44,186 bases of DNA from contig JAJDCE010000123.1 in assembly GCA_029260985.1 (NCBI GenBank), positions 1-44,186 of the forward strand. Direction: 5' to 3'. The first letter of the stretch is position 1. Every line of letters begins with the position of its first letter. Shown here one piece after another: positions 5,601-12,211 of the stretch. The notes below the pieces were generated by a model. That model ran no database searches and was not told where the DNA came from. It saw only the letters and a program-made list of their open reading frames with translations. The stretch comes from Patescibacteria group bacterium. GTDB lineage: Bacteria; Patescibacteriota; Gracilibacteria; UM-FILTER-43-11. A program made the position numbers and the translations under genes.

Positions 5601-7973
5601 TTATGCCGCCTCATCTTGCCGCCTCAGATAAGATGGCAGAAACAAAGGTGCCTTAAGACCTTTAACTTTCTTTGCAATATCCAGATCAGCCAGGTTGATT
5701 TTACCGATGTATAGATCTCGAAGGTCGCCGCCTTTTTGAATAAAATCCAGTATCTCCCGATAGCCTTTAAAGTAAACAAAATCTTTCGTGAAGGCTCCAG
5801 GCTTTGAAGTGTCCGAAAGTCCACGTTTAGCTTTTAAAGCGACTTTCCAGGCCCGATCGACACTGAACCCATGCTTAATAATCTCCGCGTAAACATCCGC
5901 AAAGGAGCCGTGCAATGCAGTGTAAATCCCCACAACCGAAGACGCAGGCCAGTATTTCTTTTCAGTCTCACTCGATTCAGTCCGCTCTTGGTTATAAACC
6001 GCGAGCCCCTCTTCAGTCATCAAATAGTCCGCCAAGCCCCGTTGAAAAATCTTATAGGGCTGCTGGCTACCGTTCATAGCCGTAAATACGTGGGTTTCAA
6101 TTTCATGTGCGATGGTTCCCTTAATCCTGTCCTCAGAAAACGTAGCCCCCTCCCGGAGCATTACCGAATTTTCCTTACCGGCAATCGCATCAGAAACCAT
6201 ATCCGCTTTAATTTTTACGCTCCAGCCTTTTAGTCCGTTGTCCTCAATCGCTTGTTCAAATAACTTCTTAGCCTCTTTGGTGCTTAGAATTTTTGAAGTG
6301 CTGGGGAAGCTCTCGGGCATAGATACGATTTCCTTCACTGCCTCCCGTAAAATATGCTGATCAGGCGCTCCATATAAATGAATTGATTTTGCTGTAAAAG
6401 AATCCGAACCTCTCACTTCTAATAATTCAATTTTTCGCTTAATTTCATCAACTTTTTTACGCCACAAAATTCCAATAGGAGAATCGGGATATTCGATACG
6501 CTTGAGACGTGCATAAAGATTATTGGGGTCAAATTTCAACGCATTGTATTCAAATTGAGGATTGTAGGTCGGATCGACTAGAAACTTATTGTGCTCATCC
6601 TTTAAATTGGTTGGCTTTAAGTGATTGAGCAGTCTGATTTCACCATCAATTGCCACGATTTCATCATCAATCTTCTGTAAATCATCGGCTGAAAAATGAC
6701 GCACAATATGAGCCACGCTGGAAGAGTCTTTGCCCGCTTTTTCAGCCGCCATATGTCTGGTGGGATCAATGAGAAAATTTCTAAGATCCCGCTGGCCGAT
6801 AAGCATTTTATATTTTTTACCCCTAAAGTTTTCCGTATCAACAACAGTCTGAATACGGCTCCCCGACAGGCTGAATTTACAATAGCCATCATCTAACTTA
6901 ATTTCTTCCGCTACCGATTGATCCAAAACCGATTTTTCAATAGTAGGATCCATCTGAGCGATGATTTTCTTATTCCCTTTTTTACCAATTACCTCAATCC
7001 GTTCCAGATTTCCGATCACGGGCTTTTGAGGAGTTTTTTCCTCATCTTTATCTTCGATCTTATGACCAAAAATATCCTGCGCAATCCGAACTCCCTTTTC
7101 AGGTGTCGCCACTTTTATTCCTTCAATTCTTTCCAGTCGTTTTCGTAAGGGGGCCATATTGGCAATTTGCACCGCAAGCCCGGCACGGGCATTGATTTCC
7201 AAGAGAATTGGACCGCTTTTATCCAGAGCAATATCAATAGCCGCAAAACCCAGGTTGGTGATTTGCTGCACTCTTGAGGTGATGAGAAGAATGTCATCCC
7301 AATGAGGAATTTTCGTACCTCGTACAGGGCCATAGCCCGGAACACTATCAATTTCTTTATTGTATTGAGTCACATGGGTCATTTCCCCTTTGGCAATATC
7401 AATTCCAACCGCAACCCCTCCTAAATGCACATTGGCCTTACCTTGTGACTCCTCGGTAGGTAGACGGATCATCGCCATCACCGGAATGAGATTGTGAGCT
7501 ACAATTCGTAAATCCGGTAACCCCTTATAAGACATCTTATTAAAAGGTTCAGGCGCTTCCAGTCGCTGTTCAAAAAAAGCAAAATCAGAAATATTAGCCA
7601 GTGAATAACGGCCATCTAGAATATCCTGAACATGCCGCTGCATTGCTTCAAGGCTTACAATATCACCATTTGGGCTCACAAAATTGCGCCCTTTCCGATC
7701 AGAAATCACCAAAATCCCTTCACCTCCATAACCGGAGTTTGGCTTAACAACAAATGAGTTGGGGAGTGTGTTCCAGTCAAAACTTTTTAACTCCTTTTTG
7801 TCCTGGATAGAACCAAAGAGTTTAGCCACAGGAATTCCTCGGGCCGATAGAAAATTTTTGGTTTTCATCTTACTATCCGCCATCATAATGGCTTTTTTTG
7901 GGTTATACGCTCTGATGTATTTCAGGCTCCGGGCGTTGATCCCGAGCAGACCTGGATTATGTAAAAACCACAT
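5601..7973 (-). CDS. Fusion protein: RimK-related (alpha-L-glutamate-ligase-like) ATP-grasp domain plus a DUF1704/QEGLA-motif (MATCAP-like) metallopeptidase domain
   Basis: 790 aa. N-terminal motifs: GINARSLKYIRAYNP, FVVKPNSGYGGEGILV, MIRLPTEESQGKANVHLGG, ILLEINARAGL. C-terminal motifs: HEIETH (plus-strand 6090-6107) followed by TEEGLAVYNQ. Confidence 0.75.
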   Translation of the reverse strand: MWFLHNPGLLGINARSLKYIRAYNPKKAIMMADSKMKTKNFLSARGIPVAKLFGSIQDKKELKSFDWNTLPNSFVVKPNSGYGGEGILVISDRKGRNFVSPNGDIVSLEAMQRHVQDILDGRYSLANISDFAFFEQRLEAPEPFNKMSYKGLPDLRIVAHNLIPVMAMIRLPTEESQGKANVHLGGVAVGIDIAKGEMTHVTQYNKEIDSVPGYGPVRGTKIPHWDDILLITSRVQQITNLGFAAIDIALDKSGPILLEINARAGLAVQIANMAPLRKRLERIEGIKVATPEKGVRIAQDIFGHKIEDKDEEKTPQKPVIGNLERIEVIGKKGNKKIIAQMDPTIEKSVLDQSVAEEIKLDDGYCKFSLSGSRIQTVVDTENFRGKKYKMLIGQRDLRNFLIDPTRHMAAEKAGKDSSSVAHIVRHFSADDLQKIDDEIVAIDGEIRLLNHLKPTNLKDEHNKFLVDPTYNPQFEYNALKFDPNNLYARLKRIEYPDSPIGILWRKKVDEIKRKIELLEVRGSDSFTAKSIHLYGAPDQHILREAVKEIVSMPESFPSTSKILSTKEAKKLFEQAIEDNGLKGWSVKIKADMVSDAIAGKENSVMLREGATFSEDRIKGTIAHEIETHVFTAMNGSQQPYKIFQRGLADYLMTEEGLAVYNQERTESSETEKKYWPASSVVGIYTALHGSFADVYAEIIKHGFSVDRAWKVALKAKRGLSDTSKPGAFTKDFVYFKGYREILDFIQKGGDLRDLYIGKINLADLDIAKKVKGLKAPLFLPSYLRRQDEAA

Positions 7974-8075: not shown

Positions 8076-8110
8076 CTGAAGAATAATTTTCTCTGAAAAT
8101 TATTCTTCAG
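8076..8110 (-). terminator. Perfect 15-bp inverted repeat overlapping the stop codon of the 7TM gene; putative terminator or attenuator
   Basis: CTGAAGAATAATTTT (8076-8090), loop CTCTG, AAAATTATTCTTCAG (8096-8110). On the minus strand the stem is followed by an A/T-rich tract. Confidence 0.5.
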
Positions 8111-9605
8111 CGTGTTTCATCACCTCCCTAAACCGAATGTATTCAAATACCCGAAGGCCAGTCCATCGGCCCAGACCGAGATTCACTACAATAAGTAATA
8201 AAATGATCTCAGGATAACTCAAAATCAGATTCTGTAGGAATTGCCACTCAACCACCCAGTAACAAATCAGCGATACAATGGTGGTTTCAAGCATTAGTAG
8301 TACGGCGGCAAAGACCCCTTTTCCGCTTTGGGCGCTCACAAATTTTTCAGCCAGCGTCGTCATAATAAGCATCGGGAATACCGCGATAGTCGCCAGTTCA
8401 CTAACTCCCAAATAAGTAGCCAAAGCCAACATCAAAAGGAGGATCAAAGTCGAAATGGTAAAAACAATGGCAATACGCGGTATATGAAGCAGCCGTACAT
8501 GCATCAAGGCCTTCCGAAGTACTGCTCCGGTAAGAATGATAATAACCAAAATCAAAAGACCGAATTTAAGACCAAGGGCTAAAAACGACAAGGTGATAAT
8601 TGCTGGAGTATAAAGTCCAAAAGTTGTGATCCCAACCACCTGCTTTAAAAAAGAAATGATAGTAGCGATCACAGGTAGCATCAGAAGAAGTACAATCGTA
8701 TTACTTGGAATTCCCTGAGCCAACATGAAATTAACCAGGTATGAAATGGAATTCCACACACTGACACTCCGAGTGTCTTTATCAATAATCAGATATTCCG
8801 ACACCCCTACTTTCAGGTCATTAACAAATGCATCAGTGTCTTTAGCTTTCACTAAATCCTCTAATTTATGTTTTCGGGTCAGTACAATTTGCTTGGGCTG
8901 AACAATGTCAAAATTACTCTGCATAATACGCCCCACCGTTTTGAGATTTTCATTTGAGGTTACCACAATGGTTTTACCCTGAATATATTCCTGAATAGTA
9001 GGTCGCTCCCTCACTAAACGAGTAAGAGCATTGATCCCACTCCCACGATTCGTCCAGACCGCAATCGTATCCGCATTGCTGATCACATCCACTTGATCGG
9101 CCAGTTTTTTAGTCAGATTCTCTTCCGACAAGAAGGCGGTAGTGCTCTCATAGCTTTCAATAACCCGTATAAAGGTTCCTTCGTCTCTGGCTTTTTTTGT
9201 AAGATTATCAATGCTCTGCTTTTGCTCAGTAATATCTGTAAGAAGCAGAATCAGCTTTTCATAGACAAAAATATCCCGGGCAATCGATGAGGACTCAGTG
9301 CCCTGATCCACTTTTAAAGTGACAAGATACTCACCAGGTTCAGAAAACGAATGAACCACTTCAACTCCCGTCTTTGTTTCAGCCCCATCTCCAAAATCCC
9401 ATGTGTAGGTAGCCTCAATATCTTCTGCAGGCAGAAATGATTGGGAGGCATCCAGAATAATACTCTTATCAACTTGCACAATGCTGTCCGCATTGATCAC
9501 CGCCCGAATATCATTGAGATCAAACGTTACCGCCGCCGAAGCAAACTGTGGCAGAAGAAGTAAGGCCGTGAGAAAGGAAAGGAAAAACTTTTTCATAATA
9601 GTCAT
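8100..9605 (-). CDS. Secreted PKD-domain protein with a C-terminal 7-TM module (7TM_transglut-like)
   Basis: 501 aa. Signal peptide LLLPQFASA. PKD motif ATYTWDFGDGAETKTGVEVVHSFSEPGEYLVTLKV. About seven hydrophobic helices from residue ~300 (VVGITTFGLYTPAIITLSFLALG...). Ends ...KHAEE. Confidence 0.7.
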   Translation of the reverse strand: MTIMKKFFLSFLTALLLLPQFASAAVTFDLNDIRAVINADSIVQVDKSIILDASQSFLPAEDIEATYTWDFGDGAETKTGVEVVHSFSEPGEYLVTLKVDQGTESSSIARDIFVYEKLILLLTDITEQKQSIDNLTKKARDEGTFIRVIESYESTTAFLSEENLTKKLADQVDVISNADTIAVWTNRGSGINALTRLVRERPTIQEYIQGKTIVVTSNENLKTVGRIMQSNFDIVQPKQIVLTRKHKLEDLVKAKDTDAFVNDLKVGVSEYLIIDKDTRSVSVWNSISYLVNFMLAQGIPSNTIVLLLMLPVIATIISFLKQVVGITTFGLYTPAIITLSFLALGLKFGLLILVIIILTGAVLRKALMHVRLLHIPRIAIVFTISTLILLLMLALATYLGVSELATIAVFPMLIMTTLAEKFVSAQSGKGVFAAVLLMLETTIVSLICYWVVEWQFLQNLILSYPEIILLLIVVNLGLGRWTGLRVFEYIRFREVMKHAEE

Positions 9606-9664: not shown

Positions 9665-12211
9665 TTAGATAATTCCAAGTCGAGCTTCAATTTCCTGATC
9701 CACAAACATCTTTTTTCGTCCGTATTTCATTCGTGAATATTTCTTTAAAATCTCCGCCATTTTATCGCTTCCTTGAGGGTCCCAAATTGTCTTGAGAGAA
9801 AAGGGCCTTGAAGTGGTATTGTTTATATTCAATTTGATATAAGCGCTATAGTTGGCAATTCCCAAAATATCCTGTTGCGATAGTAAGGGGGCATATTCTT
9901 TTGCAAGATATTCCGCGTCATCCGCACCCACCTTAAAACTAAGCATGGTACCCACGTTACCAAACACCGCGTCGCGCACTCTTGTATCATCTTTACCACT
10001 CGGTGTTTTAGTCAGTTGCGCAATATACTGATGCGCCATGATGAGCGAAAGGCGGTACTTACGGGCTTCCGATAAAATTGAGGCGAAGGTATCAGTGGCA
10101 AAATTCTGAAATTCATCCACATACATATAAAAGTCTTTTCGTTCTTCTTTAGGTATCTCTTGCCGGCCCATAGCGGCCATATTCACCTTATTAACAAAAA
10201 TCAGTCCTAAAAGCTGAGCATTTACATCGCCAATTTTACCTTTCGAAAGATTCACCAGAAGAATCTTCTGATTATCCATAATGTCTCGTATATTAAAGGC
10301 GCTTTTGGGCTGACCAATAATGTTACGAATCGTGGTATTGGTGATAAACGGACCAAATTTAGAACTGAAATACGGGATCATTTCTTGTTTTTCACGCTCA
10401 CCGGTGTTGGCATATTCATGATCCCAGAACGACTTAACCACCGCGTTGCTCACTTTCTCGAGCTTATATTTGCGGAATTCATCGTCCACAAAGATTCGGG
10501 GAACATCAATGAGTGTCGCCCCTTCATCTTCATCTTCCATCAGGGTCAAACAGGCATTCCGAAAGTAATGCTGGATACGAGGCCCGAAGATTTCATCTCC
10601 AAACAATTTGATAAAGATTTCCATCGCATCTAACGAGGCCCGATCTCTCTCCTCCGGCGTATGAGCTTCCAATAAATTAAGCCCCATGGGCCGGTCAGCA
10701 TCTGACGGATCAAATACCACAATGTCTTTGGCACGCTCTTTTTGTACAATTTTAAGAGTATCTTCCACCAGGTCGCCATGCGGATCAATCAGACAGATAC
10801 CATCTCCATTCCAAATATCCTGACGAGCCATGTAACTGAGAAGAACTGACTTACCGGAACCGGATTTCCCGATAATATACTGATGCCTCGTCCGGTCATC
10901 GGCCATAATACGCACTTCCCGCTCTTCACCCCGGTAAACATTCTTCCCAATCACAACCCCTTCCTGCGGAAGGTCAGTCGGTGGCGCAAGTACTTTGTAC
11001 GCAAGCCATTTAATAATCGGCACATTGTTATACCGCGAATCCGGGAAGTGGATGACGGAGGCAAGTTCGGTTTGAGTGAACAAGTTCTGCTTATGAAGAA
11101 TTCCAGGTATTCGTTTACGGAACAGATACTTCATCAAAGGATTATTGACTCGATCCATTGGGAAAATTCGTCGCCCCTGAAAAGCGTTTAAATAAGCATC
11201 GTGATAAATGCTAAACGCTACATTCAAATTATTTGTAATTTCAACCGCCCGCTGAGTCGTGTCAGCAACCCCAAATACCCGAATAGACGTATCAAAACCT
11301 ACTTCACCGGCTTTTTCACCAATTTTTTTATAGGCCTCTTCCTTAGCCGCCAGCATACGAATATAGGCATCACCGGAGCTCGCGCCAGGCGCACTGGTTG
11401 CCCCTTTGCCGATAGGCGCCATGAATCGGATTGCATTGATCAGTAAGCCCAGGATCGGACCTATCAATGGAATAGGTATTTTAATCGGCAATCTTTCTTT
11501 TTTAAAGAGCGCTGTACCCATCCGTTCGGTTTTGCGTCTCCACTTATTATTCGCCACTGGGTTAATAATCATCTGCATACAGGCTTTCTCACCCGTTTTA
11601 AGCTTAGAAAGCACATTGGCCATGTCATTCAGCGGATCCTGCTCCATCACTTTATAAGTATGAATCGGGAACCAGAAGTCCTTTTTGGTATACATAAAAT
11701 AGCCTCGCACCTTCTTGCCCTTTTCAAACAATTCATAAGATTTATCCAGAATTTTTATATCCGCATCTTTGTAAAACGAAGTAACCTGTTTTTCCAGTAT
11801 GTTTTGATAAAATTTATCAGCGACTACATAAAAACCGAGTTCATGATTTTCCAAAAATAACTCAAATGAGATGTTATCGGCCTGCCAGATCTTGGTTTTG
11901 ATCGTATTCCACAAATTTAGCTCCCGAATTTCATATAAAGCCCTGTAAAGCTGGGCCATAATAGCCACCTTTTCCTTAAAATCCTTCTCCGTCCGCTGTT
12001 CCTGATCCATCTTGGAGTCACTCCGAGGCAGCGTCACTTTCATATAAATCAGGTTTTTAGCCGATTTATGAGAATAGATAAGCCTTGCGAGCTTAAATAA
12101 ATACTTCAAACCATACCAAGACACAAAAACGATAATAAGCGTCGTGAGTCCATGGTTTTTCAACCAATCAAGTACTAGAGGGACGTATTGTAAGTATTTT
12201 TCAAAATCCAC
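9665..12211 (-). CDS. VirD4/TraG/TraD-like (FtsK-HerA superfamily) ATPase with an N-terminal membrane anchor
   Basis: 848 aa, with a GTG start at 12211. TM helix LTTLIIVFVSWYGL. Walker A GKSGSGKS. Walker B and TraG-D_C-like segment FYMYVDEFQNFATDTFASILSEARKYRLSLIMAHQYIAQL. Confidence 0.75.
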   Translation of the reverse strand: MDFEKYLQYVPLVLDWLKNHGLTTLIIVFVSWYGLKYLFKLARLIYSHKSAKNLIYMKVTLPRSDSKMDQEQRTEKDFKEKVAIMAQLYRALYEIRELNLWNTIKTKIWQADNISFELFLENHELGFYVVADKFYQNILEKQVTSFYKDADIKILDKSYELFEKGKKVRGYFMYTKKDFWFPIHTYKVMEQDPLNDMANVLSKLKTGEKACMQMIINPVANNKWRRKTERMGTALFKKERLPIKIPIPLIGPILGLLINAIRFMAPIGKGATSAPGASSGDAYIRMLAAKEEAYKKIGEKAGEVGFDTSIRVFGVADTTQRAVEITNNLNVAFSIYHDAYLNAFQGRRIFPMDRVNNPLMKYLFRKRIPGILHKQNLFTQTELASVIHFPDSRYNNVPIIKWLAYKVLAPPTDLPQEGVVIGKNVYRGEEREVRIMADDRTRHQYIIGKSGSGKSVLLSYMARQDIWNGDGICLIDPHGDLVEDTLKIVQKERAKDIVVFDPSDADRPMGLNLLEAHTPEERDRASLDAMEIFIKLFGDEIFGPRIQHYFRNACLTLMEDEDEGATLIDVPRIFVDDEFRKYKLEKVSNAVVKSFWDHEYANTGEREKQEMIPYFSSKFGPFITNTTIRNIIGQPKSAFNIRDIMDNQKILLVNLSKGKIGDVNAQLLGLIFVNKVNMAAMGRQEIPKEERKDFYMYVDEFQNFATDTFASILSEARKYRLSLIMAHQYIAQLTKTPSGKDDTRVRDAVFGNVGTMLSFKVGADDAEYLAKEYAPLLSQQDILGIANYSAYIKLNINNTTSRPFSLKTIWDPQGSDKMAEILKKYSRMKYGRKKMFVDQEIEARLGII

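Follow-up and report, generated by a model that had tools for sequence, protein, structure and literature searches.

Can the membrane component of an Rlo-type system be the substrate of its own ligase? The question is raised by a 44,186-nucleotide stretch of DNA, referred to here as the window, from a Patescibacteria group bacterium (GenBank assembly GCA_029260985.1, contig JAJDCE010000123.1). On its minus strand an open reading frame (ORF) encodes a predicted surface-exposed protein with a seven-transmembrane (7TM) module of the 7TM_transglut type and a Glu-Glu (EE) C-terminus, and the gene immediately downstream encodes an ATP-grasp ligase fused to a MATCAP metallopeptidase. RimK adds glutamates to the C-terminal end of ribosomal protein S6 (RpsF; PMC11957051, published as PMC12239564), and for the Rlo system of Pseudomonas aeruginosa the authors propose that the substrate is either a polyglutamate peptide or a post-translationally polyglutamylated protein (PMC11957051). 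Sequence comparison places the 7TM gene as the membrane component of a two-gene Rlo/Rim-type module. The reading that we prefer, to which we assign a probability of roughly 0.45, is that the ligase extends the EE tail of the 7TM protein and that the MATCAP domain trims it. The architecture, predicted topology, conservation and gene linkage of the module are described below, and it is from these that we infer every enzymatic step. The features of the 7TM gene, in window coordinates, are as follows.

8100..9605, minus strand: entire ORF for the membrane protein with PKD, flavodoxin-like and 7TM_transglut parts, 501 amino acids (aa)
9534..9596, minus strand: signal peptide MKKFFLSFLTALLLLPQFASA, with an ASA motif and cleavage before A, a hydropathy peak and a modelled helix at 2-19
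9285..9503, minus strand: PKD domain, predicted extracellular, aa 35-107 (Pfam and Foldseek)
8772..9260, minus strand: flavodoxin-like alpha/beta/alpha domain, predicted extracellular, aa ~116-278 of the 501-aa ORF (AlphaFold)
8121..8696, minus strand: 7TM_transglut module, aa 304-495, seven membrane helices (PF14402)
8103..8165, minus strand: juxtamembrane helix and tail WTGLRVFEYIRFREVMKHAEE, predicted cytoplasmic (conservation in orthologues)
8103..8108, minus strand: terminal Glu codons GAA GAA, with the TAA stop at 8100-8102

The preferred reading concerns the last residues of the protein, whose C-terminal peptide, with its EE end, is YIRFREVMKHAEE. The juxtamembrane stretch up to RFR is the most conserved in the whole family, with the family-wide helix motif GRWTGLRxxEYxRFR, and is followed by a tail that is clade-specific and of fixed length. 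In the window protein this basic, amphipathic helix leads into an 11-residue tail, predicted to be cytoplasmic, that ends ...RFREVMKHAEE; W478, G480, L481, R482, E485, R488, F489 and E498 are invariant in the tail region. EE closes the sequence of every one of the 118 orthologues whose C-terminus is complete (44-77% identity to the window protein), following the pattern ...RFRE(V/I)(M/F/I)(K/R)(H/Y)xEE, whereas only 15 of 1277 ORFs in the genome have such an end. The last two positions have zero entropy and position -3 has 1.8 bits, the conserved RF is followed by 9 or 10 residues in every case, and there are 5.0 Lys plus Arg per tail. The number of terminal glutamates is not constant, however, as 12 of the 118 end EEE, and in further lineages of the EE type the end is EEEE or a more extended acidic run; such variation resembles the kind of length variation that post-translational addition of glutamate would produce. 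It could be argued that the invariance of EE simply reflects the close relatedness of the proteins compared. Among 120 transglutaminase-type relatives from Proteobacteria (‘UUP1 family membrane protein’), which share 66-87% identity with their query and served as a control, none had an EE end, the tail varied freely and the entropy at the last two positions was ~3.1 bits. Close relatedness therefore does not account for the invariance of EE. In these alignments, absolute conservation of EE beside a variable position -3 indicates selection on the terminus itself.

The tail is also predicted to be on the same side of the membrane as the ligase. Hydropathy and the AlphaFold model each give seven membrane segments, and because the signal peptide is cleaved, the ectodomain is outside and the number of helices is odd, the C-terminus would be inside. 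The distribution of charge points the same way: per protein, 12.4 Lys plus Arg fall in the loops and tail predicted to be cytoplasmic and 1.0 in the outside loops (59 orthologues), and in a six-helix alternative nearly all of the loop and tail Lys and Arg would fall outside. The 7TM protein is predicted, therefore, to be N-out, C-in. The models show a type-I-like protein in which, after signal-peptide cleavage, the PKD and flavodoxin-like domains would project outside a wall-bound, single-membrane cell.

With respect to the protein as a whole, an identical protein in public gene calls begins at Met4 (position 9596) and comprises 498 aa, which is likely to be the true start. The gene is single copy in the 1.53-Mb genome (a whole-genome scan returned the same single PF14402 match), and its homologues are annotated as Candidatus Peregrinibacteria or Patescibacteria. 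The signal peptide, MKKFFLSFLTALLLLPQFASA followed by AV, displays a basic n-region, a hydrophobic core and the ASA motif. The PKD domain at aa 35-107 was matched by PF18911 (expectation value (E) 8.2e-15, 55 bits) and PF00801 (E 1.7e-9, 38 bits), both over the cut-off, and its model superposes on the PKD domain of ColG (2y72) with a template-modelling (TM) score of 0.91 and a root-mean-square deviation of 1.5 Å (Foldseek E 5.8e-7). The middle domain (residues ~113-275), when folded alone, gave a confident AlphaFold prediction (predicted local distance difference test score (pLDDT) 86, predicted TM score 0.81), in which five parallel strands form an alpha/beta/alpha, flavodoxin-like fold. No Pfam family matched this domain, a profile search of PDB sequences with it was empty, and Foldseek did not find a close solved relative (best E 1.9e-3, TM score at most 0.47 over the domain length). 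Naming the domain from structures was rejected, as the matches were merely generic flavodoxin-like, SGNH, REC and TIR-class folds (E at least 1.9e-3, TM score at most 0.55). The possibility that it is a diverged transglutaminase was ruled out by hhalign against the UUP1 ectodomain (probability 0.1%) and by its fold, and the inactive transglutaminase ectodomain (PF14400 / PF01841) had no Pfam match in the 7TM protein.

The membrane module, by contrast with the domain that precedes it, belongs to a recognized family. PF14402 matched aa 304-495 with E 8.6e-33 and 114.3 bits against a cut-off of 25, covering profile positions 56-247 of 248 and taking in the VVGITTFGLYTP segment. The exception-level NCBIfam RloB model NF052267 scored 81.2 bits against a cut-off of 900 and aligned with the 7TM part only (aa 302-497; profile 312-507). 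By sequence it is the 7TM module that places the protein in the PF14402/UUP1 family, and the protein is a homologue of the 7TM part of RloB rather than an RloB orthologue. Alignment to transglutaminase-type relatives with hhalign confined the homology to aa 289-493 (E 4e-35, 36% identity over 205 columns), ending exactly where the tails start. The whole-protein AlphaFold model (alignment of 59 orthologues, pLDDT 76) contains, in order, helix 2-19, a beta sandwich at 39-112, the alpha/beta domain at 114-275, an amphipathic helix at 280-293, seven long helices spanning 298-477 and a terminal helix at 483-497. Sequence searches found no solved relative of the 7TM module. The first-pass annotation of this DNA had read a signal peptide, a PKD fold, an unassigned domain and a 7TM_transglut-like region in the ORF, and had proposed that the PKD and unassigned domains replace the transglutaminase of known relatives; all of these elements were recovered here, the replacement holds, and the unassigned domain proved to be real, well modelled and flavodoxin-like.

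The partner of the 7TM gene lies directly downstream, and its features are as follows.

5601..7973, minus strand: ligase-retropepsin-MATCAP fusion, 790 aa, 127 bp downstream of the 7TM gene
aa 15-284 of the fusion, minus strand: ATP-grasp ligase, RloC/TIGR02291-like
6666-7058, minus strand: retropepsin-like domain; its active-site motif has degenerated from DTG to DPT
aa 469-786 of the fusion, minus strand: MATCAP/DUF1704 metallopeptidase, with HEIETH and EEGLA intact

The ATP-grasp domain was matched by PF14397 (E 7e-61) and by TIGR02291 (rimK_rel_E_lig, 259 bits), and more weakly by the RimK model TIGR00768 (E 3e-10, aa 18-94), while the MATCAP/DUF1704 domain was matched by PF08014 (E 5e-57). 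A profile built from 19 loci for the ~130-aa segment between these domains matched 9g59 (E 8e-9), 9g58 (E 7e-8) and 2pma. The proteins 9g59 and 9g58 are solved ‘ATP-dependent zinc protease domain’ proteins (PDB), and Ddi1 was matched more weakly by the same profile. From these matches the middle segment is therefore assigned to the RimB/RloA retropepsin family. Across loci the MATCAP domains keep HExxxH, the signature of the MATCAP family (PMC13522474), together with (Q/E)EGLA. Judged by their motifs, the retropepsin of the fusion is catalytically degenerate and the MATCAP domain is apparently an active carboxypeptidase.

The linkage of the two genes extends well beyond the window. A scan of 401 Patescibacteria genomes of ~1 Mb found PF14402 in 129 (113 of the 338 that are high-quality), nearly always as a single copy, and domains were mapped by iterated profile searches in the resulting 129 loci (126 fetched, the window and two contigs). 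An ATP-grasp gene directly follows the 7TM gene on the same strand in 123 of the 129; the six exceptions comprise four loci cut by contig ends and two genomes with the fusion gene elsewhere, so that 123 of the 125 informative loci show adjacency. Across three diverged contigs nothing in the neighbourhood is conserved apart from the 7TM gene and the fusion gene. Fusion of the ligase to a retropepsin domain gives a compact form of the Pseudomonas RloB/RloC/RloA set, and the core module of the candidate phyla radiation (CPR) is, in terms of sequence, an RloB-like 7TM protein plus an RloC-like ligase fused to an RimB/RloA-like retropepsin. With regard to the ectodomain, 78 of the 129 loci encode the PKD and flavodoxin-like pair, 4 the flavodoxin-like domain only and 47 neither. 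Among 92 long representatives obtained by searching a library of 1.84 billion proteins, a PKD domain was present in 73 and a transglutaminase core in only 5. On these counts the PKD plus flavodoxin-like ectodomain is the usual form in the phylum and not a peculiarity of the window gene.

Several loci depart from this pattern. The two genomes with a distant fusion gene (loci L043 in G314 and L093 in G273, which belong to the same class) have an EE-tailed 7TM gene without an adjacent ligase; their ATP-grasp-MATCAP fusion is on another contig (39-44% identity), and the G314 copy contains one in-frame TAA. Loci L104-L128 and others (e.g. L106, for which the 7TM gene plus 1.4-2.5 kb downstream was considered) encode a 7TM-only protein of ~220 aa. 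In many such 7TM-only CPR lineages two more ATP-grasp genes (~326 aa and ~565 aa) follow the ligase-retropepsin gene, often with a separate MATCAP gene, and this expanded cassette suggests multi-step peptide synthesis. A VirD4/TraD-like coupling ATPase gene (9665-12211, minus strand) lies directly upstream of the 7TM gene in the window. It was rejected as part of the module, as a homologue occurs within 7 kb in 2 of the 129 loci; because this recurrence is limited to the window and its closest relative, L002, the arrangement represents local synteny only.

The EE tail has companions among these loci. It is present in 21 of the 129, and all 21 genomes encode MATCAP, as part of a triple fusion in 17, as a separate gene within the locus in 2 and as a fusion elsewhere in the genome in 2, whereas MATCAP is found nearby in 34 of the 108 non-EE loci. 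Of 119 loci, 101 have an intact retropepsin motif, D(T/S)G, and 18 a degenerate one; EE tails occur in 16 of the degenerate loci, 17 of which have a fused MATCAP, compared with 2 of the 101 with an intact motif. The EE tail, the dead retropepsin and MATCAP thus appear to go together, and the direction of the association is consistent, although the independent events are too few. On a maximum-likelihood tree derived from ligase and 7TM columns, with the tail excluded, 16 EE loci fall in one starred clade of 17, and the number of changes is 5 for the EE tail, 2 for fused MATCAP and 5 for DTG loss. Outside this clade EE is found in L064 (fused MATCAP, DTS), in L054 (separate MATCAP, NTG) and in L103, which has a separate MATCAP, an intact DTG and the tail EEEEEEEREEE.

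Other tails also display regularities. Some CPR families keep non-acidic ends of their own, such as (A/S)KLP in L041, L047, L053, L062 and L080, and RY(I/V/M)Q in about eight loci (e.g. L040, L045, L069, L072, L076 and L077); constraint specific to each family may act on tail ends more widely. The idea that EE characterizes PF14402 proteins at large was considered and rejected: it occurs in 60 of 144 close representatives, but in 0 of 120 transglutaminase-type relatives and 21 of 129 CPR loci. At the DNA level a perfect 16-bp inverted repeat at 8076-8110, CTGAAGAATAATTTTC aga GAAAATTATTCTTCAG (coding strand), spans the final Ala-Glu-Glu codons of the 7TM gene together with its TAA stop; the repeat is rich in AU, with no U-run after it. 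This hairpin is not conserved, because in the L002 orthologue the genes abut with no spacer.

Several of the observations weigh against extension of the EE tail by the ligase. Independent-pair sign tests of EE against MATCAP or DTG loss gave p values of at least 0.125 (five independent contrasts, no power). The raw Fisher p of 5e-7 is mostly an effect of the clade of 17, and does not constitute support, because the traits change only 2-5 times. The EE-MATCAP-DTG link is not statistically established. In addition, seven loci with a fused MATCAP end KSS, KSS, KSA, KSA, HRA, KSH and NLD, and the EE motif alone is not unique because 15 ORFs of the same genome (15 of 1277, versus 5.9 expected) share it. 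It could be argued from such data that the target of the ligase-peptidase is a different protein or a small molecule, and that EE is a lineage feature, for example protection against C-terminal degradation or an assembly signal, fixed in the MATCAP-fusion clade by coincidence. With so few changes on the tree common descent can explain most of the co-occurrence, and the fused-MATCAP loci that lack EE, the two EE-tailed genes that do not adjoin a ligase gene and the fourteen other EE-ending ORFs are in keeping with this view. It should be emphasized, however, that the invariance of EE beside a variable position -3 argues for selection on the terminus, that MATCAP is present in each of L064, L054 and L103, with DTG damaged in two of these, and that the 7TM and ligase genes adjoin almost universally. 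The genome also offers no obvious substitute among the ribosomal acceptors considered. Its S6 homologue (contig C75:17417-18046, minus strand; 209 aa) has a charged C-terminal extension of ~100 aa ending ...EGEDLKL, and was rejected as the ligase target as it lacks the Glu-Glu that RimK uses in E. coli. Ribosomal protein L31 (contig C57:816-1244, plus strand) does carry a Lys/Glu-rich extension of ~75 aa that ends ...EEKEEESEKTEE, but it was likewise rejected: its EE end is conserved in none of ~25 relatives, which have basic extensions too and include those of 14 genomes with EE-tailed 7TM proteins. An EE tail unconnected with the ligase is, in our view, distinctly improbable.

Further observations that weigh against the preferred reading lead to a different alternative. 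Most relatives with the same adjacent ligase lack EE, other CPR families having tails that are basic or varied (KLP, YIQ, KSK and KK), and, as a consequence, the ancestral function of the module cannot depend on EE. Many CPR relatives contain two or three further ATP-grasp genes, suggesting synthesis of a free peptide. In Pseudomonas, RimB and the secreted RloA proteases cleave polyglutamate of at least eight residues, and the defects of a triple rloA mutant are suppressed when rloB or rloC is lost (PMC11957051); a periplasmic RloA, together with this suppression, fits an exported product better than a cytoplasmic tail. The 7TM protein may thus be a channel or platform that delivers a free ligase product, poly-alpha-glutamate or a short peptide, to the cell surface, and EE, rather than being elongated, would be a product-like motif for docking or autoinhibition, holding the MATCAP or dead retropepsin domain at the membrane. 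RimK makes free poly-alpha-glutamate, the RloA proteases act in the periplasm, and suppression of the triple protease mutant points to a product that arrives outside the cell (PMC11957051). The 7TM core, moreover, contains conserved polar or charged intramembrane residues (Q319, R361, E417, E437 and E463) and prolines, and the 47 loci that encode a 7TM-only protein retain the adjacent ligase while varying in their tails. In contrast with the transport hypothesis, the 7TM module exhibits no similarity to solved transporters by sequence, and Foldseek with the whole model returned matches driven by the ectodomain only. It is not obvious, furthermore, why a pure docking motif should require Glu-Glu with a free alpha-carboxyl, set at a constant spacing from the helix, or should tolerate EE, EEE and EEEE, and in this clade the ligase carries the two peptidase domains in one cytoplasmic fusion. 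Export or scaffolding is the main rival and rather unlikely, although the Pseudomonas genetics favour it.

In the preferred reading, extension and trimming of the EE tail, the ligase-peptidase would dock on the conserved juxtamembrane helix. The ATP-grasp domain would add residues, most likely alpha-linked glutamates, to the 7TM protein's own C-terminus, as RimK does on the Glu-Glu end of S6, and the MATCAP domain would cut the added residues back to EE, while the dead retropepsin would serve to bind the acidic tail. How long the tail is would then determine which state the 7TM protein adopts, through gating, ectodomain signalling or partner binding, in a manner comparable to the tyrosination/glutamylation cycle of tubulin tails. 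A more far-reaching proposal, which we put forward only tentatively, is that Peregrinibacteria and a few other CPR lineages possess a self-contained, reversible polyglutamylation system acting on the cytoplasmic tail of a surface-exposed, receptor-like 7TM protein, in which an ATP-grasp writer, a dead-retropepsin reader and a MATCAP eraser reside on one polypeptide, and tail length transmits or adapts a signal between the ectodomain and the interior of the cell. The first-pass annotation had linked the module to RimK-like ligases, which the gene linkage supports very strongly, and had listed three findings that would speak against it (a 7TM region that does not match PF14402, an extracellular C-terminus and a terminal EE that varies among orthologues); the profile match, the predicted topology and the orthologue alignment gave the opposite on all three. 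Its suggestion that the 7TM protein is itself the substrate fares less evenly, as comparative support is found in a few clades only and the tree-aware test was not passed, for want of independent events.

The 7TM EE tail is a candidate target for the Rlo family of bacterial stress-tolerance systems. The presence of the module in about one-third of the ~1-Mb Patescibacteria genomes points to an important role in organisms whose non-essential genes have mostly been lost, and retention of PF14402 in 129 of 401 genomes is high for genomes so reduced. In the literature searched, neither PF14402 nor this architecture was mentioned beyond the Rlo study. To our knowledge no activity has been shown for the bacterial homologues of MATCAP, and no substrate is known for bacterial MATCAP/DUF1704. 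Were the more far-reaching proposal correct, the 7TM protein would be the first bacterial MATCAP substrate and the first polyglutamylated bacterial membrane protein. It would also represent a prokaryotic counterpart of the tubulin tail code, and would indicate where the target of the clinically relevant Pseudomonas Rlo system might be sought.

Several known systems share features with the module. With RloB (PA14_41710)/UUP1 of the P. aeruginosa rloABC operon it has in common a homologous 7TM module and juxtamembrane helix, an adjoining RloC/TIGR02291-like ligase and a retropepsin-family domain. The two differ, however, in the ectodomain, which is PKD plus flavodoxin-like in the window and an inactive transglutaminase in RloB; in the retropepsin, which in the window is cytoplasmic, fused to the ligase and has lost DTG, whereas RloA is a secreted active enzyme; and in the addition of MATCAP and of an invariant EE tail, the latter found in 0 of 120 transglutaminase-type relatives. 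The first ectodomain resembles the PKD domains of ColG-type surface proteins in its fold and motifs (WDFGDG...), although here a single PKD domain occupies the N-terminus of a polytopic membrane protein, and no function is implied for it beyond surface exposure and binding. In common with RimK, RimB and S6 the window encodes a RimK-related ATP-grasp ligase, a cytoplasmic retropepsin-family domain and an acceptor candidate that ends Glu-Glu as does E. coli S6, the encoded number of terminal glutamates varying by species. In contrast with that system the acceptor candidate is an integral membrane protein, the genome's own S6 ends DLKL, and the putative eraser is a metallo-carboxypeptidase, while RimB is an active aspartic endopeptidase. 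The module is, in sequence terms, a fused cytoplasmic Rlo/Rim variant with an added MATCAP. This last component connects it to the tubulin cycle of TTL/TTLL ligases and the MATCAP detyrosinase, in which an ATP-grasp writer is likewise opposed by a MATCAP-family gluzincin eraser (HExxxH), and in which detyrosinated alpha-tubulin has a free C-terminus, ...EE, like that of the window 7TM protein. Unlike the tubulin enzymes, the putative writer and eraser of the window share a single polypeptide; a 7TM membrane protein is the candidate substrate, and the gene encodes no aromatic residue at the terminus. In this clade the whole system comes down to two genes, and the EE end of its membrane protein matches exactly both RimK's acceptor on S6 and the end produced by MATCAP on tubulin.

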